Positions 5,662-50,220 of a DNA stretch of 64,000 nucleotides are shown here, piece by piece (position 1 is the stretch's first letter; each line of letters starts with the position of its first letter). The notes under the pieces were generated by a model that saw only the letters and a program-made list of their open reading frames with translations, did not search any database and had not been told where the DNA came from. The DNA is from Nanobdellota archaeon (lineage in GTDB: Archaea; Aenigmatarchaeota; Aenigmatarchaeia; Aenigmatarchaeales; Aenigmatarchaeaceae): the NCBI GenBank assembly GCA_018901655.1, contig JAHIEG010000004.1:4267-68266 (forward strand). Reading direction: 5' to 3'. The translations under genes and the position numbers were made by a program.

Positions 5662-5736
5662 AGAATTATTTAACGGTGTTACATTTAAAATATGTGGATT
5701 CTGAGGAATGTTACTAAAAGGTGTGGTGGACTTAAA

Positions 5737-5934
5737 CTATTTTTTCCAAATTCTTATTTGCACCATTACTGCACAAACCAATGATATGATCAAAAAGTAC
5801 CAAGGATTGATACTATTAACCCAATTCATTAAAGTAGGCCAGATTGTTATTGCAAATAATACAAAAGCTACAACAGCAATTTTTACTAAAGCTAAATCAA
5901 GTAGTTTTAACTTTTTCATTTGTTTTTCAAACAT
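5737..5934 (-). CDS. small membrane protein (2 TM), hypothetical
   Basis: 65-aa hydrophobic ORF, ending near the tRNA 3' end. Weak. Confidence 0.25.
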   Translation of the reverse strand: MFEKQMKKLKLLDLALVKIAVVAFVLFAITIWPTLMNWVNSINPWYFLIISLVCAVMVQIRIWKK

Positions 5935-5954
5935 GTTTTCACCTCTAATTATAA

Positions 5955-6032
5955 TGGTGCCCTCGACGGGATTCGAACCCGCGACTTTCTGATTAGAAGT
6001 CAGACACTCTATCCAAGCTGAGTTACGGGGGC
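5955..6032 (-). tRNA. tRNA-Arg (anticodon UCU), CCA encoded
   Basis: Reverse complement folds as a cloverleaf: acceptor GCCCCCG/CGAGGGC (one C·A mismatch at 5:68), D-arm ACTC…GAGT, anticodon stem TCTGA/TCAGA with loop CTTCTAA, T-arm GCGGG-TTCGAAT-CCCGT, 3' ACCA. Confidence 0.85.
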
Positions 6033-6081
6033 ATAATAAATATAGTAATTTAATAGAATTTAAAAGAATAAAAGGATGGGT

Positions 6082-6753
6082 CTATTGACCCTGCTGTCCA
6101 GAACTATTACCTTCAAATCCGTTTCCTTCTGTGTTCTGTTCTTGGTTCTGGGTTTCTCCCTGATTTTGCTCTTGATTCATTTCTTGTGCACAGTCGCATG
6201 TTTCTCCTTCTAAACAATCCCCTTGACATGTTTCTACTCCTGTACAACCTCCATCACATTCTTGAAGTCTTTCTCTTATTCTTTCTCTAATCTGTGATGT
6301 TGATTCTATTGCTTGATCTATTCCTGCTCGAGCTTCTTCAGGCACTCTCGATCTAAGTCTTTGTAAAACCTGTGTTTGTGTCTGTGCTGCTTCTTGAACT
6401 TTTGCTCCAAGTTCTGTTGTTGTTTCAGTAACTTCTTCTATATTTTCAATATACTCTTGAACTTTTTCCATTCTATATTGATATCTTTCAACCAATTGAT
6501 TCGTATATTGATATTCTCCAAGTTCATCTAATTCTTCAACTTCAGCCATTCTTCTAAGAGCATAAGCATATTGTAGTTTTGCTTTAGCTTCTTGTCTAAA
6601 TGTAAATGCAAGTGCTAAACCTTCTCCCATTTTCTTAAATCCATAAGACCAATGAGTTGGAAGTGCTCCTACATCTACTCCGAAGCTATTTGCTGCAACT
6701 ACAGGTGTTGCAAATACTAAGATTCCCATAATTATTGCTAATATTTTTTTCAT
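6082..6753 (-). CDS. secreted coiled-coil protein with a Cys-rich, Gln/Glu-rich C-terminus; hypothetical
   Basis: Signal peptide MKKILAIIMGILVFATPVVA, heptad-like central region, C-terminal CDGGCTGVETCQGDCLEGETCDC. Confidence 0.5.
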   Translation of the reverse strand: MKKILAIIMGILVFATPVVAANSFGVDVGALPTHWSYGFKKMGEGLALAFTFRQEAKAKLQYAYALRRMAEVEELDELGEYQYTNQLVERYQYRMEKVQEYIENIEEVTETTTELGAKVQEAAQTQTQVLQRLRSRVPEEARAGIDQAIESTSQIRERIRERLQECDGGCTGVETCQGDCLEGETCDCAQEMNQEQNQGETQNQEQNTEGNGFEGNSSGQQGQ

Positions 6754-7201: not shown

Positions 7202-9808
7202 ATGACAGATTTTAAAAAGATTGAAGCAAAATGGCAAAAGAAATGGATAGAGTCAAAAATATTTGAAACCAAAGATAAAGGTAAAAAAATGTATATTCTT
7301 GAAATGTACCCCTATCCTTCTGGCTATGGTCTTCACATGGGTCATGCAAGAAACTATTCTATTGGTGATTCCTTTGCACGATTTAGAAGAATGCAAGGAT
7401 TTAATGTAATTTATCCAATGGGGTGGGATTCGTTTGGACTACCAGCTGAAAACGATGCAATTGAAAAGGGTATTCATCCAAATGAAAATATAAAGAAAAA
7501 CATTATTGTAATGAAAGAGCAAGCAAAAAGATTAAGTTTAAGCTATGATTGGTCAAAAGAATTAAACACCGCAGATCCAAATTATTATAAATGGACACAG
7601 TGGTTATTTTTAAAATTACTTGAATCTGGTTTAGCATATAGAAAATATGCACTAGGCAACTGGTGTCCTGGATGTCAAACAACTTTAGCTAATGAAGATG
7701 TTAAATCCGGAAAATGCTGGAGATGTGATTCTGAAGTTATTCAAAAAGATATTCAACAGTGGTTCTTTAAAATTACAAACTATGCTGATCGTTTATTAAA
7801 CGATATAGACAATGTAGACTGGTCTGAACGATTAAAAACAACCCAAAAAAATTGGATTGGTAAAAGTAATGGAGTAGATTTAATATTCCCTATTAAAGAT
7901 TCTAAAAAAGAAATTAAAACCTTTACAACAAGACCTGATACATATTTTGGAATTACATTTTTAGCAATGGCGCCTGAACATGAAATGGTTAACGAACTAA
8001 TTGAAAATAGTTCAAATAAAAAAGAGATTGAAAATTTTATTAAAGAAACTAGAAAATTAAGTGAACTTGAAAGAACTGCTTTACTAAAGGAAAAAAAAGG
8101 TGTGTTTACTGAAAAATATGCTATTAATCCAATTACGAAGGAAGAGATTCCAATATGGCTAGGAAATTATGTTGTATCAAGTTATGGAACTGGTGTAGTT
8201 ATTGCTGTTCCTGCTCACGATCAAAGAGATTTTGAGTTTGCAAAGCAAAATAAATTAAAAATAAAGATGGTTATCCAACCTAAAGACAGCGAACTGGATG
8301 CAAATAAAATAAAAGAGGCTTTTGTCGATGAAGGTGTAATGGCTAACTCTCCAGGATTTAATGGAACATATTCTAAAAACGCGAGTAAAGAAATTACTGA
8401 TTATCTTGTTAAAATGAAATGGGCTGAAAAAACAGTTAATTATAAATTAAGAGATTGGAATATTTCAAGACAAAGATATTGGGGTGCACCAATTCCAATT
8501 ATTTACTGTGATAAGTGTGGAATTGTTCCTGTTCCAGAAAAAGAATTACCTGTTGAATTACCACTTAATGTTGAATTTGGAAAGAAAGGAAGTACGCCTC
8601 TGGCTACAGATGAAAAGTTTATTAACACCAAGTGTCCAGTCTGTAAAGGTTCAGCAAAAAGAGAAACCGATACAATGACTACGTTTGTAGATTCTGCTTG
8701 GTATTATCTTAGATATTGTTCTCCTAATGATAAAGAAATATTTAATAAAAAGCTAGTTAACTATTGGATGCCAGTTGATCAATATATTGGTGGTATTGAA
8801 CATGCTGTTGGACACCTATTGTATTCTAGGTTTATTACAAAATTTTTAAAAGATAAAAAATATTTAGATTTTGATGAGCCATTTATGAAATTATTAAACC
8901 ATGGTATGGTGAATCTTGGTGGAAGTAAAATGAGTAAATCAAAGGGAAACGTAGTTGATCCACTAATTACAATTGAAAAGTATGGTGCCGATGCATTAAG
9001 AACATATTTATTATTTATGGCCAATCCGAGCAAAGAGGTTGAATGGTCTGAATCTGAATTAGTTTCAGTTTCTAAATTCATTGAAAAAACATATACTATG
9101 CTTGATCAAATGAAAGAAGCTAAAGGAAATAAATATATAGATAGTGTAGCACAAACTAAAATACAAAAAGTTACAAAACACCTTGAAGATCTTGAACAGA
9201 ACTATGCTGTAATTGAATTAATGGATTTCGCAAATAAATTAAATCGATATCCATCTGAATATGCTTACAAAATATTTTTGAAACTATTATCACCATTTGC
9301 TCCAGCAGTAGCAGAAGAAGTTTGGGAGAAATTAGGAGAAAAGAATTTTATCTCAATTACAAAATGGCCAACTGTTGATGTTAAAAAAATAAATCCAAAA
9401 GTAGAAGCTGGTGAAGAATATATTTATGATGTAATGAATGATATTAAAGAAATAATTAAATTGTCAAAAGTTAATCCAAATAAGATTAGCATCTTTGTAA
9501 CCCCGTCTTGGAAATATGATGTCTACAATATGATTGTAGAAGGTAAAAATCTTAGAGACATAATGAAAGATGAAAAAATAAATAAGCATGGTAAGCAAGC
9601 TACAAATTATATTATGAAATTAAATAAAAAAATTCCTTTAGATGATATGATAATGACAACAACAGTTGAAACAACTGCATTAAAAGAACATAAAAAAGAA
9701 TTTGAAGAAATCTTCAACTGTAAGATTGAAATTATTTCTGCTGAAAAATCAGACGCTCCTAAAGCAAAAATTGCTGAACCAAAGAAACCTGGAATACTAA
9801 TTGAATAG
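7202..9808 (+). CDS. leuS: leucyl-tRNA synthetase (archaeal type)
   Basis: HMGH (HIGH) motif, KMSKS motif, and the CP1 editing region. 868 aa. Confidence 0.95.
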   Translation: MTDFKKIEAKWQKKWIESKIFETKDKGKKMYILEMYPYPSGYGLHMGHARNYSIGDSFARFRRMQGFNVIYPMGWDSFGLPAENDAIEKGIHPNENIKKNIIVMKEQAKRLSLSYDWSKELNTADPNYYKWTQWLFLKLLESGLAYRKYALGNWCPGCQTTLANEDVKSGKCWRCDSEVIQKDIQQWFFKITNYADRLLNDIDNVDWSERLKTTQKNWIGKSNGVDLIFPIKDSKKEIKTFTTRPDTYFGITFLAMAPEHEMVNELIENSSNKKEIENFIKETRKLSELERTALLKEKKGVFTEKYAINPITKEEIPIWLGNYVVSSYGTGVVIAVPAHDQRDFEFAKQNKLKIKMVIQPKDSELDANKIKEAFVDEGVMANSPGFNGTYSKNASKEITDYLVKMKWAEKTVNYKLRDWNISRQRYWGAPIPIIYCDKCGIVPVPEKELPVELPLNVEFGKKGSTPLATDEKFINTKCPVCKGSAKRETDTMTTFVDSAWYYLRYCSPNDKEIFNKKLVNYWMPVDQYIGGIEHAVGHLLYSRFITKFLKDKKYLDFDEPFMKLLNHGMVNLGGSKMSKSKGNVVDPLITIEKYGADALRTYLLFMANPSKEVEWSESELVSVSKFIEKTYTMLDQMKEAKGNKYIDSVAQTKIQKVTKHLEDLEQNYAVIELMDFANKLNRYPSEYAYKIFLKLLSPFAPAVAEEVWEKLGEKNFISITKWPTVDVKKINPKVEAGEEYIYDVMNDIKEIIKLSKVNPNKISIFVTPSWKYDVYNMIVEGKNLRDIMKDEKINKHGKQATNYIMKLNKKIPLDDMIMTTTVETTALKEHKKEFEEIFNCKIEIISAEKSDAPKAKIAEPKKPGILIE

Positions 9809-38491: not shown

Positions 38492-39229
38492 CTATAATAC
38501 ATCTTCAAACCCGTGTTCAATAGTAGATATACGCACTTTTATAGTTGGCAACAGCTTCTTAGCAGTCTGGCCAAGCTTTCGCATTATCTCCACGCTTGGA
38601 CTCTTCATATCTCCATAACTAGGATCAAGTGTATTTGCTGGTCTAAATTGTTGTAAACTATACATCTCAAATCCGCCAGATTTAACAATATCACACATTT
38701 GAACCATGTCCTCTTCAGAATCATTAATCCCTGGAACTATGGTTGTTCTAGCTTCTTTAGAAACATCACTTGATTTTAAAATAACCATTGATCTCTGTAC
38801 ATTTTTTACGATCTCAGAAAAATTAGATGTACCAATAGCTAATCCATACTTATCATATGGCGCTTTAACATCAATTGCAACAAAGTCTAACATTCCTATC
38901 ACTTTTTCAAGAACGTTTGGAAATGATGCGTTTGTATCTAATTTTAACTTCTTTACTCCTTTTAATTTTATAATCAATTCAACCGTATCGGCCTGCATTA
39001 AAGGTTCTCCACCTGTTATAACTACGCCTTCTATTAAAAAATTATTATTAATCTCTTCTACTATCTCATCTACTTCTGCTTTTTTACAAACCATTGGATC
39101 GTTTAATACTACCTCTCTATTATGACAAAATGGACATCTAAAATCACAACCACAGAGATATATTACAGCACTTATCTTACCTGGATAATCTATTGTAGAA
39201 TTATCAACTATTCCTGCAAGGTCTAGCAT
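38492..39229 (-). CDS. nrdG: anaerobic ribonucleotide reductase activating protein (radical SAM, NrdG-like)
   Basis: CxxxCxxC (…CGCDFRCPFC…), …GGEPL…, about 245 aa. Last gene of the nrdD operon. Confidence 0.75.
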   Translation of the reverse strand: MLDLAGIVDNSTIDYPGKISAVIYLCGCDFRCPFCHNREVVLNDPMVCKKAEVDEIVEEINNNFLIEGVVITGGEPLMQADTVELIIKLKGVKKLKLDTNASFPNVLEKVIGMLDFVAIDVKAPYDKYGLAIGTSNFSEIVKNVQRSMVILKSSDVSKEARTTIVPGINDSEEDMVQMCDIVKSGGFEMYSLQQFRPANTLDPSYGDMKSPSVEIMRKLGQTAKKLLPTIKVRISTIEHGFEDVL

Positions 39230-39230
39230 A

Positions 39231-39590
39231 TTATCTACCTAATGCTTTTAGAAGTTCTTCTTTAGTAGGAATCTGACTAATAAATCTAGGAACACCATCT
39301 ATTATTATCGAAGGTGTTGAAGCTATTTGATAAGTTAATGCTTCTAATGATATGTCTTCTCCAACAACTGCAGCTGGACTATTTTCTGGAGTTATCTGTT
39401 CAACATAATTAACTATTGTATATTTTTCTCCCTCAAGTACAATTGATCCTGGGCTTAAGTCTGTTCCATCTACTAACTTCTCTACAAATTGCTTTCCTTC
39501 TATCCAACCTAATTCTTTACAAACTTCTCTTACTACTTTTCTTGCAGCTGGACATTTTGGACACATAACTGATGTATATAATATTAACAT
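39231..39590 (-). CDS. thioredoxin/glutaredoxin-like redoxin (CPKC active site)
   Basis: …YTSVMCPKCPAARKV… near the N-terminus, thioredoxin-fold length. Confidence 0.7.
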   Translation of the reverse strand: MLILYTSVMCPKCPAARKVVREVCKELGWIEGKQFVEKLVDGTDLSPGSIVLEGEKYTIVNYVEQITPENSPAAVVGEDISLEALTYQIASTPSIIIDGVPRFISQIPTKEELLKALGR

Positions 39591-39594
39591 TTTA

Positions 39595-39792
39595 TCACTT
39601 TATTGTTACTGCTATCGGTTCTGATACTTCTTTCTTATCTTCTGGTTCAGCATGAACTCCATATCTTCTTCTATCTTTTAATTCTTGAAGTTTGGCAGCA
39701 TTCCAACCACTTACATTTTGATAGTATCCTGTTATTCTAGACCATACTTGCACATTTTTACTTTTACACTTTGAACATTCACATTCTATCAT
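39595..39792 (-). CDS. nrdD: class III RNR glycyl-radical domain encoded as a stand-alone 65-aa ORF (NrdD C-terminal fragment: half Zn-ribbon + RxxGY glycyl radical motif)
   Basis: MIECECSKC…WSRITGYYQNVSGWNAAKLQELKDRRRY matches the NrdD C-terminus (…RVxGY…WN.GK..E…R). Own SD GAGGTGA 5 nt upstream. All three frames are closed between it and nrdD-large. Confidence 0.7.
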   Translation of the reverse strand: MIECECSKCKSKNVQVWSRITGYYQNVSGWNAAKLQELKDRRRYGVHAEPEDKKEVSEPIAVTIK

Positions 39793-39806
39793 ATTTTCAC
39801 CTCATT

Positions 39807-42800
39807 TTAAGCCCCACCTACAAAACCACAATCATCACACACTGCCAAGTCTTTTGTAAACGCAAAGTATTGTATTGCTGTTTTTGTTGCAATGTTTTTA
39901 GTTAATTGGGTTATTGCATCTGGGTCTGGATTAGCATCAGCAAGCCATATATGACTCATTGCTCCTCCATCTGTTAAAGGATGAAAGGATCCTTCTATTT
40001 GTAATCTTTTGAATAGTGGCACATTTGCATCTGGCCTTACGTGAAATGAATTGGTATAATATATTGATTTTGTATCTGAATTTCCTTGATAAATTACTTT
40101 ATTTGGATATCGTCTTTTATCTATCATTGCTAAACGACCACCCGTTGATTCAGCTGGAGTTCTTGCCAAAGCAAAATTTAATCCTGTTTCTTCTCTAAGT
40201 GCTGCTATCTTAGTTTTTAAATATTTCATTATTTTTAATCCAAACATCCAAGCTGACTGACTTTCATGTAATTCAGAACCTGTATAATATTTTACCATTT
40301 CATTAAATCCAATATGACCAATTGTATAACTCTGTTTTAAAGGTTCTAAGTATCTATCACCTTTTTCATTTACTATTTGACTCATGAAAGGTAACATTCC
40401 ATTTTGTAAATTCTTTTCTATTAAATCTTTTCTAAGAATCATAATTCTTTTAATCAATTCTAATCTCTCATCAATTATTTCATATATTCTGCTTTCTTCT
40501 TTATCAGACTCATATGCAATTTGTGGTAAGTTTAAAGTTACTACTTGTAATGATCCTCCTCTGACAGTTCCGTTTAACATGTCATCTGCATCTGATGATT
40601 TATCTAATGGCATAAGATAGGCACAACAGTTCGATGAAAATATTCCATCTGATGTTAAAAAATTATGATACTTTTCAACATTAATTAAATCATATACGTA
40701 TCGGCTTTTTACTTCTTCTATTTTCTTTACTTCAAATAAGTGTAAATCGCTTCTTATGAATTTTGAATATAATTCATCGTTCATTTCGAGTCTTTTTTCT
40801 GTTACTCTTTTACCAATTTGACACCTGTTCCAATGTCCTGTTTTTAAATTTTCTCTTTTAATATCAAATGGATTAACTGGGACCCTTTCATAAGAATCAA
40901 ATGATTTACCTAATATTGTAGGAACGTTATCAGAAAATGGCACTGATTCCAGAAATGAGCTCTTTCTTAAATTACTTGTTAATCTTAACGAATGAGAATT
41001 TTCTCCATGATATTTATCAAATGGAACCCCTATTCTCAAACCAAGTACAAAAATATCATCAATTAAGTCTCTATTACACAAATGTAAATCTATCTTATCT
41101 GAATTTGAACCGTCTCCTCTAAACATTCCAAGCATGAAATCCTTTATAATATACCAAGGAGAAGTCATGAGTATTTTTGGTACTCTTTTGGTTTTAGCAT
41201 CATAATTTGTTCCAATATTATCAAATAGTTCAACAAGTTCTTTGCTATAAACATAAACTGTGTTTGTATTATTCTTTTCTGAAATATCAAACTTAGCTTC
41301 TAAACCAAATTTTTCCTTAAGTATTTTAGCTGTATCGTCAATGTATTCTTTTTCTTTAATATTGAATGAGAATGATATCTTGTTATATCTTGTTTTCTTA
41401 TTTGCTATGTGCATATATCCTTCACTTGCAAAATATCCAAGAAGTCTTGCAAATTTAGCATCTATTTCTATTTTTTTATTATTAAAATCAACAAATCGAT
41501 CAAATTCAAACTCAAGTGGTAAATTCTTAGCACCAATTAAATAGTCTCCTTTCTTGACATCTTCCATTCTTATTTCACTTATCTTATTATTCCTCACAAC
41601 TGGTATTTTGTGTTTTTCTGTTCCTGAAAAAGTCCTATTTCCATCAAGAATTAATTTGAAAATCTTTTCTTTTGTTTCGTGTTTCATTACTTTTTCTATT
41701 TTTGTTTTCTTTATTTCAAGCGTATTTGTATCGAATGATATTGCATAATCATTACATTTTGATAGCTTAACTTTTCCTTCAATGCCGCTTCCTTTCTCGA
41801 CTATAGATTTTTTCATTATAGATTCAACATATTCTCCTATTTCGATATTTATGAGTCTATCATCTCTTAAAATCAATATCTTCTCTTCACCTGGTATTGA
41901 TTGATAACATGAAAATTCAGGCATATATGGCTGTTTAATTATGTAATATGGTGTTCCAAACTTTGCTGCAAGACTAGAAACTTTATACGTCTCTTCATTG
42001 TATCTTCCAGCTGCTAAATCTTTTGGATCCATTTGTACTTCAAACTTAGGAAAGTTAAATGGTTTTCCTTGCCAATCTCCTTTATCAAACACGTCTAAAA
42101 ATGCATTAAATAGTTTTCTTGTCTCATCTTCATAGTCTCCATAAGTTCCTGTTGCTCCACTTTTTCTTAATCCAATTATTGGAATGTCTTTTAACATATT
42201 TGGAACATGCATATCTAAATCGATTGAAGAAAATACAACCTGTCCTCCTCGCGCAACATACATTTGACTATTATGCAAAGCTATACCACTGATTGAAATA
42301 AAGTTCTGTGTTTCTTCTATCTCTAAATCATAAACATAAATTTCTTTATCTAATTTTTTAATACTTGTTATTTTTTCCAAGAATAGGTCATGGTTTAGAG
42401 GATTACAAGGAATGTTAGAAACATTCGTCATTGTTCCATTAAATGGTGCTAACATATAATCTGGCGTCTGTGGTACTCCTTTATTTTTTATTATATTTTC
42501 CAGTTTCAATGCCTTTTCATTCACAAATCCTATCTGATCCAAAAATTTCTTTGCAGAACTAATATCACATATATATAATAAATTAGAATCTTCATTTGCT
42601 TTTGTCTTTACTCCTTTGATAATAATCTCTTCTCCAGCTTTTCTAAATATCTTAGATTTAAATACAAGACCAAATCTTAAAAATGCAAATCTTAACTGTT
42701 CTAAAAGCTTTTTACTCGATGTTGTCATACCTACCATTCTTGAATCTGAAACATAACCGTCACTATTTACATAAGACTTTAAAAATTGTGACAATTTTTC

Positions 42801-44759
42801 TTTAGGTAAAGCTAATAGCCATGATGGTATTTTCTTATCTATAGCGTGTTCCCCCAGACCAAGAATGTCTCTAAATAACAAAGCCGCCAGCTTACCACCA
42901 AATCTTAAATTATACTCCTCTGCTTCATATGGATCAACTGACCCAAACACATGTTTTACACAAAATATGGCATCTTTTTTTATTAATTCGTTGTGGTCTA
43001 TACCAAGTCCTATTCCCATATTTTCATCAGAGGAATTAGTATAGCCTTCTGCAACATAGTATCCTATAAGTCTCAACAGTTCATCTGAAATACTTAATTT
43101 CAATGGCAAATAATATTTCTTTTTTGAAAATGTAGAAGATGTAACAAGTATATTTGATAAGACGCTTTTAGGCACATTATGTTTATCTACAATCTCTGTT
43201 AATTTTTTAAAACTTATTGTTCTTTTGCCTTCTAAAGCCTGTTTAACAAACCAACTATCTCCGATTTCTTTAGATGCTGAACCTAAAAAATCTATTAGTG
43301 GTTTGATGTTTGTAATTCTTAGCTTATGATAATCTCTTTTCTTTAATTCTTCATAAATATCTATAAATTCCTTGTCTATAGAAAAATCAATGTTTTTTAT
43401 TCCAACTATAAAATCATCATGCTTTAACTTAGACGTTTTTACTGGAACGATTTTTTCGCCATTAAATGTAAAAACAGAATGATGCCCCGTTAAACTAATC
43501 TTTTTGCCAAAGTTTGTTCTTATTTCATATAAATCAGATGCTTTATGTCTAGACACTCCTGTTATCTGCATCTGTTTAATGGTTCCGTTTTCATCAAAAC
43601 TAAGTGTTTTATATTTCCTATTTTTTGTTTTGACAATTTCGCTTTTACTGTATCTGTGAACATCATTACTATTATCCACTATATTATCAACAAAATCTTT
43701 TATCTTAAAAATTCTAAATTCGTTTTCTTCGTCTATTACTGGTATCTCTTCTTCTCCATCAATGCTCATTTCATAAATAAACATTTGAGCTAGTTGTTTC
43801 ATCTGCTTTTCAGATAATCCAGAAACAGCTGGTGCCATAAAAGTATTAAAGAATGAAAACCCCTGTCCTCCTGCACAATTAGTCTGTGATGCTGCTAAAA
43901 TTTTTGCAGCGTGTAAAAAAGCAACTTCTGCGTTTTTTGCTGGACCAGCTATTGATGTATGCCTTCCTGTTCCATCTGGTTTAAAACCGTGTTTTAGGAA
44001 AAATCTAACATCATGACTAAAACAAAATGGTCGACTAAAGAAATAATCCATATCGTGAATATGAATGCTTCCATTCATGTGTGCATTTGCCATTTCTTTA
44101 GGAAGGATTTTAGTTAATGTGTATTCTTTACTTACTCGGTCAGCCATTATTTTATGAATTGTTTCTGGATTATACTGTAGGTTTGCATTTTCTTTTGATC
44201 CTCTATTTATTATTTGAGTTACATCATAAACTGGCATTCCAATTCTTGTATATAGTGCTCTTTCTTTTTCATAACCACTTTCTAAAAGTTTAACATTTAC
44301 TATTTCTCTTATTAGTGGTGCAGAAACATGTTCAATATTCATTGCTTTAATAAATTTTTCTGTCTCAAATGCAATCCGATCTGCATCTATAGGATTAAGT
44401 TCTGTTTCTCTAACAATTGATTCTGCGATTTTAACTCTATCAAATCTTTCAAAGGTCTGCATAGAAGTGCTTACATATATTTCTCCTGCTTTGAATCTTC
44501 TTGATGCAGGCGAATCATATTTTTGTAATAAAGCATAAATTAAAGGTCTAATATCTGACATCTTTACTCTTGAATCAGCGTAGTTATCAATTTCATTTGA
44601 TATTTTTCTTGCTATCTCTTCAGAAGTTCCTGCTCTTAGACATGATGAAAATGTTCTATCTTTAGAATAACGTTCAGTTTTTGCTAACCAGAATAGTACG
44701 TTACCCTTATCTTTGGTATAAAAATCTTCAATTACTTTAGGAGATATCTTACTAGACAT
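39807..44759 (-). CDS. nrdD: anaerobic (class III) ribonucleoside-triphosphate reductase, large part, containing two inteins; ends inside the Zn-ribbon (…CDDCGFVGGA*)
   Basis: Exteins (aa 1-331, 831-950, 1378-1650) carry NrdD motifs (N-terminal ATP-cone-like region, …NCAGGQGFSFF…). Two insertions have intein Hint/LAGLIDADG blocks. Confidence 0.9.
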   Translation of the reverse strand: MSSKISPKVIEDFYTKDKGNVLFWLAKTERYSKDRTFSSCLRAGTSEEIARKISNEIDNYADSRVKMSDIRPLIYALLQKYDSPASRRFKAGEIYVSTSMQTFERFDRVKIAESIVRETELNPIDADRIAFETEKFIKAMNIEHVSAPLIREIVNVKLLESGYEKERALYTRIGMPVYDVTQIINRGSKENANLQYNPETIHKIMADRVSKEYTLTKILPKEMANAHMNGSIHIHDMDYFFSRPFCFSHDVRFFLKHGFKPDGTGRHTSIAGPAKNAEVAFLHAAKILAASQTNCAGGQGFSFFNTFMAPAVSGLSEKQMKQLAQMFIYEMSIDGEEEIPVIDEENEFRIFKIKDFVDNIVDNSNDVHRYSKSEIVKTKNRKYKTLSFDENGTIKQMQITGVSRHKASDLYEIRTNFGKKISLTGHHSVFTFNGEKIVPVKTSKLKHDDFIVGIKNIDFSIDKEFIDIYEELKKRDYHKLRITNIKPLIDFLGSASKEIGDSWFVKQALEGKRTISFKKLTEIVDKHNVPKSVLSNILVTSSTFSKKKYYLPLKLSISDELLRLIGYYVAEGYTNSSDENMGIGLGIDHNELIKKDAIFCVKHVFGSVDPYEAEEYNLRFGGKLAALLFRDILGLGEHAIDKKIPSWLLALPKEKLSQFLKSYVNSDGYVSDSRMVGMTTSSKKLLEQLRFAFLRFGLVFKSKIFRKAGEEIIIKGVKTKANEDSNLLYICDISSAKKFLDQIGFVNEKALKLENIIKNKGVPQTPDYMLAPFNGTMTNVSNIPCNPLNHDLFLEKITSIKKLDKEIYVYDLEIEETQNFISISGIALHNSQMYVARGGQVVFSSIDLDMHVPNMLKDIPIIGLRKSGATGTYGDYEDETRKLFNAFLDVFDKGDWQGKPFNFPKFEVQMDPKDLAAGRYNEETYKVSSLAAKFGTPYYIIKQPYMPEFSCYQSIPGEEKILILRDDRLINIEIGEYVESIMKKSIVEKGSGIEGKVKLSKCNDYAISFDTNTLEIKKTKIEKVMKHETKEKIFKLILDGNRTFSGTEKHKIPVVRNNKISEIRMEDVKKGDYLIGAKNLPLEFEFDRFVDFNNKKIEIDAKFARLLGYFASEGYMHIANKKTRYNKISFSFNIKEKEYIDDTAKILKEKFGLEAKFDISEKNNTNTVYVYSKELVELFDNIGTNYDAKTKRVPKILMTSPWYIIKDFMLGMFRGDGSNSDKIDLHLCNRDLIDDIFVLGLRIGVPFDKYHGENSHSLRLTSNLRKSSFLESVPFSDNVPTILGKSFDSYERVPVNPFDIKRENLKTGHWNRCQIGKRVTEKRLEMNDELYSKFIRSDLHLFEVKKIEEVKSRYVYDLINVEKYHNFLTSDGIFSSNCCAYLMPLDKSSDADDMLNGTVRGGSLQVVTLNLPQIAYESDKEESRIYEIIDERLELIKRIMILRKDLIEKNLQNGMLPFMSQIVNEKGDRYLEPLKQSYTIGHIGFNEMVKYYTGSELHESQSAWMFGLKIMKYLKTKIAALREETGLNFALARTPAESTGGRLAMIDKRRYPNKVIYQGNSDTKSIYYTNSFHVRPDANVPLFKRLQIEGSFHPLTDGGAMSHIWLADANPDPDAITQLTKNIATKTAIQYFAFTKDLAVCDDCGFVGGA
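40629..41909 (-). mobile_element. intein 2 in NrdD (about 427 aa) with LAGLIDADG homing-endonuclease domain
   Basis: Begins CYQSIPGEEKILI, LAGLIDADG motifs …FARLLGYFASEGY… and …FMLGMFRGDGS…, ends …VYDLINVEKYHNFLTSDGIFSSN followed by C. Confidence 0.8.
42270..43766 (-). mobile_element. intein 1 in NrdD (about 499 aa) with LAGLIDADG homing-endonuclease domain
   Basis: Begins SIDGEEEIPV (block A-like), LAGLIDADG-type motifs …LLRLIGYYVAEGY… and …LKSYVNSDGYV…, ends …VYDLEIEETQNFISISGIALHN followed by S. Confidence 0.8.
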
Positions 44760-47351: not shown

Positions 47352-49034
47352 TTATCTTAACTTAACAGCAACTCCTTTCTTAAAATCTTTAATTTCTTTT
47401 TTGTTTAACAACGCCATTCCTGTTATAATTGGTTTACTATCTGAAACTATCAATACTTCTTCTCCTGGATAAATATCATCTGTTCGTTCAACAAACTTAG
47501 TAAATAATGATCTTCCACTTTTTACATGCTCAAGTATCTCTGATGGTACTTCAACTGTTTTCATCTTAATATATTTTGATCCTTCTAAGGTTGGTATAAA
47601 GAATCCATCATGTGGTCTTATTGTTCCAAGTAATTTTTTGTTTTTCCAAACTCTTCTAATCCGTCCTGTCTTTCTTGAAACTTCTGTGCTAAAACTTGTT
47701 TTAAACTTTGAACTAAATTGATATTCAATTGTTTTATTTACAATATCACTATTACTTGCTTTACCAATTGGTTCAACCTGATCTGGAACTATTGATTGTC
47801 CAAATGGATAAACTCCTTTTAATTCGATTGGTACTTTTCCAAACGGTTTCTTAACAAAATATTTTTTAGATTTAACTCCTTTAACCATTTTCTTAGCTCT
47901 TAGAACTTCTGGTCTATATTTCGATTCTTCGCCACACCATCGCAATGCGGATTTCTTCGAGATTGGTTCGTTCCCCAACAAATATTTTCTATATTTTTTG
48001 AGAACAAATTGTAACGCCTCAAGCAATGCCGGATGTGCTCTTGCTCTTTGTTGTACTAACTCCCACAAACTATTATCTCTGATTGCTTGGCGTATGGATC
48101 TTAATTCCGCGAATGTAACATAAAGATTGTGTCTTGCCAATTCTTTTACTTTTGCTGAATTTTCTAATTCTATTAATTCTTTAACCGTGTATTTTGTGCA
48201 TATCGGACATGAACATGGCAACTCTATTAATTCTTCTAATCTATGCGTTCCGTAATTTGTCATATATCTATTATCATATGCGTATAATGCGTAGGCAGCT
48301 GAATCAAAAATATCAGAACCTATGGCAACAGCCAAACTCATAAAACTAGGCAGACCCAAGCCAAATGCGTGGAGCGGCTTATTTGAAGGTATGTTCATTT
48401 TCGCTGTTATAATCTGCTGGCATACTGTTTTAAAATCATATCTTATCATCTTCGGCACAATCGAACCAATAGCATATGCATCAAAATCTAATTTGCCAAC
48501 GGATTTTGCACATTTTTTAACAAGATCAAGGTGTTCTCCGCCTTGTATCGGAGCCATCCATGATATTTTTGAATTCTCTGTTAATAATTTGCATTCTTTC
48601 GCTCTTTTAATTGTTTCGAGCACTGTTTTTTTCGCGTCATCATATTTTAAATCTCCAGATGTAACATCTAAAAAGGTTCCAATGTCTGGTTTTATTTTCT
48701 CTTGAAATTCAATTATCTCTTTATTTGTTAAATTAATAGACGACCCGAACATTGTTTGATATGCCCCACTGTCTGTCATTATCATACCGTCAAAATTCAA
48801 GAAATCATGAAGTCCTCGTTTCGAAATATCTTCCATTAACCTTGATCTTTTAATCAGATACGCATTTGTAATTATTAGTTTCGCCCCAAATTCTTTTTTT
48901 AATTCGGCTGGCGTTATTATCATTTTCCCAGGATTTATTACTACAGCCAGTTCTGGGAGCACTATGTTCCGATCACCCAAAGTTAGTTTAGATATTCGAC
49001 CTGAACAATCACGAGAGAGAAGTTCTAACATCAT
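47352..49034 (-). CDS. tgtA: archaeosine tRNA-guanine transglycosylase (ArcTGT) with C-terminal PUA domain
   Basis: TGT catalytic barrel, Zn site …CSCPICTKY…, C-terminal PUA-like segment. 560 aa. Confidence 0.9.
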   Translation of the reverse strand: MMLELLSRDCSGRISKLTLGDRNIVLPELAVVINPGKMIITPAELKKEFGAKLIITNAYLIKRSRLMEDISKRGLHDFLNFDGMIMTDSGAYQTMFGSSINLTNKEIIEFQEKIKPDIGTFLDVTSGDLKYDDAKKTVLETIKRAKECKLLTENSKISWMAPIQGGEHLDLVKKCAKSVGKLDFDAYAIGSIVPKMIRYDFKTVCQQIITAKMNIPSNKPLHAFGLGLPSFMSLAVAIGSDIFDSAAYALYAYDNRYMTNYGTHRLEELIELPCSCPICTKYTVKELIELENSAKVKELARHNLYVTFAELRSIRQAIRDNSLWELVQQRARAHPALLEALQFVLKKYRKYLLGNEPISKKSALRWCGEESKYRPEVLRAKKMVKGVKSKKYFVKKPFGKVPIELKGVYPFGQSIVPDQVEPIGKASNSDIVNKTIEYQFSSKFKTSFSTEVSRKTGRIRRVWKNKKLLGTIRPHDGFFIPTLEGSKYIKMKTVEVPSEILEHVKSGRSLFTKFVERTDDIYPGEEVLIVSDSKPIITGMALLNKKEIKDFKKGVAVKLR

Positions 49035-50220
49035 TTAACCTCCATACAGATTTTTTATTACTTCCAATCCTTTCTATTGTGCCCATTCTTTGTAGATTAT
49101 TAAGATGTTTCCGCATAGTTATTTGTGACCTATCAAATCTTATCGAAAGATCTTTACTTTTAAGAACATCTTTGTTATCAAACTCCTTTAATATTATCTG
49201 TTGAATTTCTCCTTTTTTATATTGTTTATTAAACTTACGAGAAACTAGTGCCACTATCCTTTCTTTTTTGAGCATATGAATGAAACTTACCTTTTCTTTA
49301 AATGTCTTGATTTGATATTGTCCCGTAATTCCGAAACCTAGACATATCCTATCTCTTTCTTTTCTAGATCTCATTTTTCTAACCGCATCGGGACTTACAC
49401 CCAAACCTATCAACATTTTTCTTGTATGTTCCAGAAACTCATTCAGATTTTCTGCTATTTGTGTCTTTTTATCAAAACATATTCTTATGTTATTATGTTT
49501 GTAACATACTGTTCCTTCATCATCAAATAACGCCTGTAAGAATGCTGACTTAATTTCATTTGATCCGTTCAGAATCCAATCTGGTATAAAATATTGTTTC
49601 TCTGTCTTCTTACCATCTGGTGCTCCGCATAAAATTAATAATTTACCGATAACATTCGAAAATGTTATCATAGTTTTTACTTTATTTGTAACGGTTATAA
49701 CTTCTGTTCCAGTGTTTAGATTTTTTCCGAAGACTTTGACGACATCTTTCCTAACACTTTCAACCAACTCCTTTCTTGTATTTGAATATTGAAACTGATT
49801 TGCTCTTTTACTGATATGTCCATCGCCCATCGCATGAGCAACAAGTCTAGCCAAAGCAGCTGATGATACTACTGGCAATTTAACAGGAATCAGTTGATGA
49901 TGCTTACCGCGCATATATTTTATATTTTTCTCAATATCAGAATATGGTATTTCTGATAGCTTTGATATGTTTCTAATCATATGCGAACTAGCTAAAGCCT
50001 CTTCTCTTATTCCTTTTCTGTTTCGAAAGCCATTTTTTATTTCTATCACATGAGAATCGTGCATATTAAATATCTTGGCCAGTTTTTTCCACTCTCCTCC
50101 AGCGTTATATCTTGCTCTGTCAAATAGTTTTTTTCTGAATTCGTCGTTGATGCCGATAAAAATACTGTTTGGTAAATTATCTAATGATATTAAATTCGTG
50201 CGATCCGTCATATAAATCAC
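49009..50220 (-). CDS. free-standing HTH + double-LAGLIDADG + C-terminal winged-helix protein (intact paralogue of 2749..3887)
   Basis: N-terminal …GEWKKLAKIFNMHDSHVIEIKNGFR… HTH, …LARLVAHAMGDGHIS… (motif 1), …LQALFDDEGTV… (motif 2), C-terminal …HLNNLQRMGTIERIGSNKKSVWRL…. Confidence 0.65.
   Translation of the reverse strand: MIYMTDRTNLISLDNLPNSIFIGINDEFRKKLFDRARYNAGGEWKKLAKIFNMHDSHVIEIKNGFRNRKGIREEALASSHMIRNISKLSEIPYSDIEKNIKYMRGKHHQLIPVKLPVVSSAALARLVAHAMGDGHISKRANQFQYSNTRKELVESVRKDVVKVFGKNLNTGTEVITVTNKVKTMITFSNVIGKLLILCGAPDGKKTEKQYFIPDWILNGSNEIKSAFLQALFDDEGTVCYKHNNIRICFDKKTQIAENLNEFLEHTRKMLIGLGVSPDAVRKMRSRKERDRICLGFGITGQYQIKTFKEKVSFIHMLKKERIVALVSRKFNKQYKKGEIQQIILKEFDNKDVLKSKDLSIRFDRSQITMRKHLNNLQRMGTIERIGSNKKSVWRLNDVRTSLS

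Follow-up and report, generated by a model that had tools for sequence, protein, structure and literature searches.

Among the genes of the window analyzed here, a stretch of 64,000 nucleotides from the Nanobdellota archaeon assembly GCA_018901655.1 (contig JAHIEG010000004.1, positions 4,267 to 68,266 of the forward strand), we found a class III ribonucleotide reductase (RNR) gene, nrdD, that is divided over two adjacent open reading frames (ORFs) on the minus strand. The larger of these, nrdD-large, encodes the catalytic chain, and the smaller, of 65 aa, the glycyl-radical domain (GRD). With a probability of roughly 0.78, we regard the pair as a functional genes-in-pieces class III RNR of a Nanoarchaeota (DPANN) archaeon, real and conserved. 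The radical-glycine loop is not on the catalytic chain, the motif SRITG22YY being encoded solely by 39595..39792, and the Zn(Cys)4 ribbon is incomplete in nrdD-large, which holds Cys1641 and Cys1644 only, with Cys6 and Cys9 on the 65-aa chain. To our knowledge, the radical glycine is located on the catalytic chain in every glycyl-radical enzyme (GRE) described so far. The elements of the split gene are as follows.

39807..44759, minus strand: nrdD-large, precursor of 1650 aa with ATP-cone, catalytic barrel, two inteins and the first zinc knuckle
39828..39839, minus strand: first zinc knuckle, Cys1641-x-x-Cys1644 (CDDC), 6 residues before the end of nrdD-large
39807..39809, minus strand: TAA stop codon of nrdD-large
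39793..39806, minus strand: spacer of 14 nt, AATGAGGTGAAAAT, between nrdD-large and the small ORF
39797..39803, minus strand: Shine-Dalgarno (SD) motif GAGGTGA, 4 nt upstream of the small-ORF ATG
39595..39792, minus strand: small glycyl-radical ORF of 65 aa, with the second zinc knuckle, the radical loop, a helix and a variable acidic tail
39766..39777, minus strand: second zinc knuckle, Cys6-x-x-Cys9 of the small ORF
39727..39729, minus strand: radical Gly22 in SRITG22YY of the small ORF

Family membership of the two ORFs

A single family profile is shared out between the two ORFs. nrdD-large matches TIGR02487 with 436 bits (cut-off 326) over profile positions 1-537 of 581, and PF13597 with 435 bits (cut-off 26) and coverage up to profile position 517. 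The small ORF takes up the remainder, i.e. positions 541-581 of 581 in TIGR02487 (E 6e-13) and 523-562 of 562 in PF13597, and this sole Pfam match is to NRDD and not to the radical domain of the pyruvate formate-lyase (PFL) type. Such complementary coverage would not be expected by chance and makes the ORFs two parts of one family; the possibility, raised in a preliminary description made from the letters of the DNA alone, that the small ORF might be unrelated to the NrdD C-terminus fails on the same matches. Further Pfam matches in nrdD-large are PF03477 (ATP-cone), Intein_splicing and LAGLIDADG_3. No second NrdD or further copy of the radical domain was found within the 64-kb window.

Canonical class III RNRs (phage T4, E. 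coli, T. maritima and P. copri; structures 1H79, 4U3E and 8P23) share with the window the same profile, the ATP-cone, the barrel and the finger-loop cysteine(s), as well as a C-terminal Zn(Cys)4 ribbon followed by an RxxGY radical loop and an adjacent radical-SAM activase. They differ in that ribbon and radical glycine are part of the catalytic chain, whereas the catalytic chain of the window stops between the zinc knuckles.

The junction and the zinc ribbon

nrdD-large ends in ...FTKDLAVCDDCGFVGGA-TAA (in a longer view ...AIQYFAFTKDLAVCDDCGFVGGA-TAA), and the small ORF begins with MIECECSKCKSKNVQVWSRITGYYQNVSGWNAAKLQELKDRRRYG... (in a longer view MIECECSKCKSKNVQVWSRITGYYQNVSGWNAAKLQELKDRRRYGVHAEPEDKKEVSEPIAVTIK). 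In a global alignment, residues 1-331, 831-953 and 1378-1650 of the large ORF followed by residues 2-46 of the small one are collinear with residues 19-789 of L096, a fused and intein-free relative of 789 codons. The initiator Met of the small ORF is the sole residue added by the split, as seen at the junction itself, where L096 reads CDDCGFTFGS-IGDKCPSC and the window CDDCGFVGGA(stop, SD, M)IECECSKC. The 17-nt gap of the preliminary description holds as a length if the TAA is counted in, the spacer proper being only 14 nt. The SD motif and the change of frame were both read as described, and so were the stops: each of the three frames runs into a stop on the way from the last sense codon to the ATG, with a TGA in the small-ORF frame downstream of the TAA of nrdD-large. 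The split amounts to an insertion of approximately 20 nt that brings a stop, an SD motif and an ATG, and not to an indel.

When aligned to P. copri NrdD (8P23), nrdD-large ends at about residue 690, its first knuckle falling on CLDCGYE (residues ~685-690), and the small ORF covers residues 699-736, with Cys6 at 699 (CPKCGS). The large ORF had been said to end after the first CxxC, and the alignment bears this out by putting the break between the two Cys pairs, in the loop that separates the zinc knuckles. In P. copri NrdD, residues 676-739 form the GRD, in which a structural Zn site precedes the buried Gly711 loop, and this domain moves as a rigid body. A break in a surface loop between the knuckles is plausible in a mobile, rigid-body domain with a structural Zn.

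Across 19 detached homologues, C6, C9, R19, G22, W30, K34, E37 and R41 are invariant. The small ORF had originally been credited with a CxCxxC and a radical motif; the radical motif stands, but the cysteine motif reduces to a canonical CxxC (Cys6 and Cys9), since Cys4 is replaced by Gly or Tyr in two relatives. The Zn ligands of the small chain are therefore taken to be Cys6 and Cys9. The two chains together retain the full set of four Zn ligands, and the radical Gly motif, both finger-loop cysteines and the residues for intein splicing are intact as well.

Inheritance of the split in close relatives

The junction was found again, with 0 mismatches over 3198 nt, in the Logan assembly of SRR6976411 and in an ENA MEGAHIT contig. 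More informative is L011, a relative with 83% aa identity that is split at the same site. Its large ORF ends in ..CDDCGSVTGTK-TGA (..YTKDLTICDDCGSVTGTK-TGA), followed by AAATGAGGTGAAAT as in the window, a 38-aa micro-ORF, a second SD motif and then MAECTCSKCNSKN... A neighbour-joining tree built from the final ~260 residues groups the window with L011, and the sister group of this pair consists of the fused L015, from a Nanoarchaeota metagenome-assembled genome (MAG), and L096 (73-74% identity). Between the window and L011, dN/dS amounts to 0.11 for 220 codons of the large ORF and to 0.16 for the small ORF, at a dS of about 1.0-1.45, which is near saturation and makes these ratios approximate. 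The small ORF gave 0.19-0.28 in comparisons with L009, L182 and L183. Low ratios on both sides of the junction point to purifying selection on both pieces since the split.

When 5.8 billion proteins were searched with the small ORF, all matches were short, and five of them (P0002-P0006, 66-83% identical to it) start with M-x-E-C-x-C-S/P-K-C. The NCBI entry for the identical small protein assigns it to a Nanoarchaeota MAG. The last 119 aa of the large ORF, run against the same set, yielded 8 candidates, of which 0 end at the break. Upstream of the small ORF, an SD-like motif (GAGGTGA, GGGGTGA, GAGGCGA or GAGGTAA) is located 4-7 nt before the ATG in 6/6 clade members. Spacers between large and small ORF range from 14 to 129 nt in the relatives, some of them containing another ORF, and that of the window is the shortest.

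A micro-ORF of 36-38 aa (MYE....(I/L)(E/D)EY..) with its own SD motif occupies the gap in L011 (679..795), L183 (20..130) and, in part, L182 (1..39), and is absent from the 14-nt gap of the window. Neither the micro-ORF nor the other gap ORFs of the relatives had any family match. The micro-ORF may be a remnant of the element that caused the split, or a small extra subunit. Because relatives keep this or other ORFs in the gap, the split probably arose by insertion between the zinc knuckles, and a mobile-element origin is possible.

In some relatives, the gene for the small protein is found in other surroundings. The ORF upstream of it ends in ...ENGKCLDCGAPYKEILEEPLNEFPKDLSKKWRRKL plus stop in L009 (1..108) and L010 (3..170), and in ...GGWKYKGLVPAKYLKEVK plus stop in L012 (1..258), and the genes downstream in L012 (S24-like, RHH, Alba) are unrelated to RNR.

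A second split in Micrarchaeota

By scanning GTDB genomes and JGI metagenomes, we obtained 160 loci, nearly all of them fused (...CxxC-x(10-12)-CxxC...SRITGYY). Only one, L050 from a Micrarchaeota MAG, has an adjacent split, and none comes from the window's own clade. With relatives being mostly fused, the split is derived and rare. The NrdD of L050 is 39% identical over the same region, is distant in the tree and carries an intein. Its large ORF ends in ..CENCNETYGLRI-TAG, followed by GGGGCGGGAAAAT-ATG and MTEIAGKKIKCSKCGS..SRVTGYY (MTEIAGKKIKCSKCGSENIGIWSRVTGYYQNVSGWN....), with an SD-like motif before the ATG, and the operon has the same order as in the window, i.e. large, small, thioredoxin-like and radical-SAM activase genes. 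The break falls between the same Cys pairs, but the junction sequence differs and the two pieces are in the same frame. To judge from these comparisons, the split in L050 is independent of that in the window. The search of related genomes proposed in the preliminary description has thereby turned up the same split twice, namely in L011 within the clade and in L050 outside it.

Another candidate, P0008 in L005, was considered as a second split located before the first CxxC, and was rejected since the reading frame of its NrdD shifts twice by 1 nt over a stretch of about 50 nt (frames 0, 2, 1), as in a frameshifted or decaying gene. In L005 (1880..2000), and likewise in L006-L008, the frame shifts just before the Zn ribbon, and an 81-aa 'stand-alone' C-terminus is consequently called (P0008). 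This frame-shifted state is present in contigs of several samples. Decay into a pseudogene, a systematic error or recoding could account for it.

Inteins, finger loop and operon

The preliminary description had read the 1650-aa ORF as NrdD interrupted by two LAGLIDADG inteins, which the TIGR02487 and Pfam matches and the alignment to L096 corroborate. Intein boundaries were set by global alignment to L096, against which each intein appears as an unaligned block.

42270..43766, minus strand: intein 1, LAGLIDADG type, 499 aa, residues 332-830
40629..41900, minus strand: intein 2, LAGLIDADG type, 424 aa, residues 954-1377

Intein 1 starts with Ser1 (SIDGEEE...), ends in ...ALHN and has Ser at +1 (SQMYVARGGQ), and intein 2 starts with Ser1 (SIPGEEK...), ends in ...FSSN and has Cys at +1. 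PF14890 (splicing) and PF14528 (LAGLIDADG) are each matched in two stretches, the intein blocks TGHH and TEKH are readable in the sequence, and the two inteins are about 24-28% identical to each other. After splicing, nrdD-large has a predicted length of 727 aa. Two inteins are presumably also carried by the NrdD of Methanocaldococcus jannaschii, MJ0832 (InBase Mja RNR-1/-2), which, unlike that of the window, we take to be one polypeptide that includes the C-terminal radical domain.

The insertion site of intein 2 is the catalytic finger loop (..SCYQ / CCAYL..), which in the spliced chain reads ..FSCYQCCAYL.. and thus contains a QCCA motif. QCCR/A in the finger loop is the motif of the NrdD3 subclass (PMC9669993), and this signature fits the presence of a redoxin gene in the operon. 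As in the methanogen-type NrdD3 enzymes, with their thioredoxin/NrdH-like reductant, a QCCA loop is combined with a thioredoxin-like operon gene; the window differs by the split protein and by an unusual insertion of ~40 aa in its redoxin, whose role as reductant is putative.

39231..39590, minus strand: thioredoxin-like redoxin (CPKC), 119 aa, matching PF13192 and TIGR00411 in two stretches
38492..39229, minus strand: NrdG, radical-SAM activase, 245 aa, matching TIGR02495 (NrdG2), PF04055 and PF13353

Both genes had been placed in the operon by the preliminary description, and the NrdG assignment is borne out by a TIGR02495 match of 166 bits (cut-off 131), two genes downstream of nrdD-large. 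In the order nrdD-large, small ORF, redoxin and nrdG, the intergenic gaps are 14, 4 and 1 nt, and the four genes probably form an operon with a single mRNA. The redoxin would be the putative reductant of an NrdD3-type enzyme. It matches the MJ0307-type profile at residues 2-29 and about 66-117, and the interval between these stretches implies that some 40 aa are inserted behind the CPKC helix. This form of redoxin, of 119-125 aa, accompanies the nrdD genes of L005, L009 and L182 too, downstream of the small ORF.

The rest of the window is an ordinary archaeal chromosome with e.g. PheRS-beta, LeuRS, AlaRS, POR, archaeosine TGT, Cdc6 and two tRNAs. Furthermore, a free-standing LAGLIDADG-domain protein of 403 aa with a GTG start is encoded at 49009..50220 on the minus strand, its ORF sharing 26 nt with the start of the gene at 47352..49034 for archaeosine tRNA-guanine transglycosylase. 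This protein might be a homing endonuclease, a regulator or a part of a broken gene that contained an intein.

Free-standing radical domains of the NrdD type

In 1.84 billion representative proteins, HMMER found 349 matches, and among the best 150 of these there were at least 16 clusters (50% identity) of 48-75-aa proteins. These share an architecture of a Met, a short leader, a single CxxC and the radical loop at the end. An adjacent NrdD gene was found for none of the four that were looked up (P0072, P0036, P0063 and P0087). Three of them are located as follows.

L174, 4850..5008: P0072, on a contig with many small ORFs, HNH and a DNA methylase, with a glutaredoxin next door
L177, 5001..5189: P0036, on a contig with PolB, Cas4-like and ERCC4 genes
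L180, 114..260: P0063, on a short contig

The contexts of P0072 and P0036 look viral. P0063 and P0087 are on short contigs, where the neighboring ORFs had no family match. A scan of viral_contigs with P0072 gave no matches, and one with the clade alignment gave mostly fused phage NrdD. In Altiarchaeota, free-standing NrdD-type radical proteins of 77-99 aa, with their own CxxC...CSxxC, are encoded away from nrdD.

L061, 7836..8111: Altiarchaeota small radical protein (Altiarchaeales ex4484_2)
L057, 1359..1634: Altiarchaeota small radical protein
L053, 3931..4185: Altiarchaeota small radical protein
L131, ~7848..8120: Altiarchaeota small radical protein
L134, 7839..8126: Altiarchaeota small radical protein

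Two of the genomes, ex4484_2 (L061 and L031) and MAG234 (L057 and L032, the latter with two NrdDs in tandem), combine the small protein with a fused NrdD, and in L053 the radical-domain gene directly follows a thioredoxin gene, with an NrdG-like gene at a distance of 2 kb. The Altiarchaeota proteins look like candidates for a spare part of class III RNR, i.e. of a GRE other than PFL. In the IMG/VR contigs L189 and L190 (~5700..6117), a Zn-ribbon ORF (..CLRCWHTWRSEKKYTYCPKCKSKN..) is followed by the radical loop in another frame (..CEVYSRVVGYFRPVSQWNPGK..), with no NrdD barrel upstream of the Zn-ribbon ORF. These two contigs may hold a frameshifted free-standing radical-domain gene.

More tentatively, and with the odds leaning the other way, the small ORF, the subunits of split NrdDs, the Altiarchaeota copies and the viral-like copies might constitute one unrecognized set of proteins that are activated by NrdG off the enzyme and exchanged into the reductase.

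Alternative explanations

The explanation closest to the one preferred here refines it, by seeing the small chain as an exchangeable radical cartridge that would be activated by NrdG off the enzyme and swapped out once cleaved by oxygen, sparing the cell from remaking and re-splicing a 1650-aa precursor with two inteins. The occurrence of NrdD-type radical domains on their own and away from nrdD speaks for it, be it the 77-99-aa forms of Altiarchaeota, where fused NrdD is also present, the L053 gene, which follows a thioredoxin gene and has an NrdG-like gene in its vicinity, or the single-CxxC forms of 52-62 aa on virus-like contigs. So do the existence of such a role in PFL, where it is performed by GrcA/YfiD, and the intrinsic mobility of the GRD. 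In the window, however, the large chain itself lacks a radical domain, which makes the small chain obligatory and not a spare, and oxygen cleavage at the radical Gly would leave a Zn-bound N-terminal stub. Exchangeability is hypothetical, and we regard it as doubtful for this enzyme.

It is very improbable that a fused NrdD is made after all, by ribosomal frameshifting, hopping over the gap or read-through of the stop codon. The gap is short, bypassing of a coding gap has a precedent in T4 gene 60, and in L050 the in-frame pieces are separated by a single TAG; read-through is conceivable there, and there only. The gap of the window has a stop in each of the three frames, so that no single shift can join the ORFs, and no matching pair of take-off and landing codons was found around the gap. 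The variation of the spacers from 14 to 129 nt, at times with an ORF, combined with an SD motif and ATG that are always kept, fits independent initiation instead.

That the break is an artefact of sequencing or assembly, or marks a dispensable gene that was recently inactivated by mutation and is decaying as a pseudogene, seems just as improbable. The sequence does come from a MAG assembly, the superficially similar P0008/L005 is an NrdD broken by two 1-nt frameshifts, and the nrdD of phage phiAS4 is in three pieces of unknown function. The junction of the window, on the other hand, is the same in three assemblies and consists of an approximately 20-nt insertion with stop, SD motif and ATG, not of an indel. 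L011 inherits the break at a dS of about 1 with dN/dS of 0.11-0.16 on both sides, all catalytic and ligand residues are intact, and the same break is found independently in L050.

Lastly, protein trans-splicing by a split intein that religates the chains can be dismissed: natural split inteins such as DnaE exist and the gene already has two inteins, but collinearity with L096 refutes a split intein at the break, where no unaligned residues except Met1 leave room for intein halves, and Pfam finds the two internal inteins only.

Several observations weigh against a working two-chain enzyme as the preferred explanation. The three assemblies that agree on the junction possibly share the same or overlapping reads, and the near-saturated dS has already been mentioned. 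Within the clade, both pieces are found side by side only in the window and L011, and the ORF just upstream of the small gene is not NrdD-like in L009/L010 and L012/L013, which are short contigs; the small gene may have been relocated away from nrdD in L009/L010 and L012. A second, fused nrdD may be present elsewhere in the genome, the assembly being a MAG. An AlphaFold2 model of the small chain alone (25-sequence alignment) places Gly22 in a beta-hairpin and residues 32-43 in a helix, at a pLDDT of 64, and Foldseek found no match with E <= 0.001 in the PDB for this low-confidence model. Finally, the proposed two-chain class III RNR is known here from genes alone.

Proposed mechanism

In the mechanism that we propose for the two-chain enzyme, ribosomes would stop at the TAA of the large ORF and reinitiate at the ATG behind GAGGTGA, thereby producing roughly matched amounts of the 65-aa protein. 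The 1650-aa precursor would excise both Ser1 LAGLIDADG inteins to give a 727-aa chain that comprises ATP-cone, barrel and QCCA finger loop but, of the zinc ribbon, no more than the first CxxC. One Zn would then be held by two cysteines of the large chain (Cys1641 and Cys1644) and two of the small one (Cys6 and Cys9), clasping the chains together, and the Gly22 hairpin of the small chain would insert into the barrel beside the finger-loop cysteine. NrdG would place the radical on Gly22, and the adjacent thioredoxin-like protein would serve as the electron donor, in keeping with what has been proposed for NrdD3 enzymes. That translation is coupled, that the chains assemble in trans through Zn, that NrdG performs the activation and that the enzyme is active are all points that we infer from the sequence. 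A single Zn shared between two chains, each of which contributes a pair of cysteines, is known from the zinc hook of Rad50 and from the zinc clasp of CD4/CD8 and Lck, unrelated proteins that may serve as an analogy for the assembly step only.

Relation to known systems

In full-text searches of the literature, we found no NrdD with a separate or stand-alone radical subunit. This agrees with the preliminary description, which knew of none, and with a review of June 2026, according to which autonomous glycyl-radical proteins are known for formate lyases only and other GREs are an open question. The known case is GrcA/YfiD (and Y06I of phage T4), an autonomous glycyl-radical 'spare part' of PFL. 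Similar to what is suggested here, it is a small stand-alone radical-loop protein that docks into the barrel of a large GRE and is activated by the cognate activase. It differs in being a copy of the PFL radical domain, lacking a Zn site and backing up an enzyme that has its own domain. The small protein of the window is of the NrdD type, brings half a Zn site and is the sole radical domain for its partner. Being NrdD-type and having a partner without a radical domain, it is not a spare part of the GrcA/YfiD kind; backing up a partner that keeps its own radical domain fits the Altiarchaeota paralogues, not the small ORF of the window.

Split RNRs that still work are found in other classes, namely NrdJa/NrdJb and the NrdA-a/NrdA-b of Aeromonas phage Aeh1, the latter split by the homing endonuclease MobE. 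The catalytic subunit of the class II enzyme NrdJa/NrdJb is likewise encoded by two consecutive ORFs with a short spacer and has a zinc-finger module in the C-terminal piece; it differs from the window by belonging to another class, by having no glycyl radical and by a break that does not run through the Zn site. In phage T4, the topoisomerase genes for gp39/gp60 were split by MobA through a metal-binding site, and the enzyme is active. Like this topoisomerase and Aeh1 NrdA, the window has genes in pieces whose products may assemble into an active enzyme. The endonuclease gene is kept in both of those systems, and terminal extensions mediate assembly; the window has neither. With a gap of 14 nt and Met1 as the only extra residue, the hallmarks of genes in pieces made by homing endonucleases, i.e. 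an endonuclease gene between the pieces and extensions, are missing. Split nrdD genes of phages have been attributed to introns, inteins or unexplained fragmentation.

Significance

If the proposed assembly is correct, the window encodes a naturally detached, 7-kDa radical domain of NrdD, in which the Zn ribbon is predicted to act as an inter-chain clasp. The detached domain would be a minimal natural substrate for studying how the activase gains access to a glycine that is buried in the assembled enzyme, a question for which fused enzymes, with their mobile GRD, have been a difficult system. For annotation, the finding means that ORFs of 50-100 aa are easily overlooked and that the shortened large gene could pass for a pseudogene. 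Should the wider set of free-standing radical domains prove to be real, class III RNR would in these cases be a two-component enzyme with a separate radical subunit, and among GREs the set would represent the first 'spare part' system outside PFL. A separate radical-bearing subunit would also make class III RNR resemble class I, and would thereby bear on models of RNR evolution.

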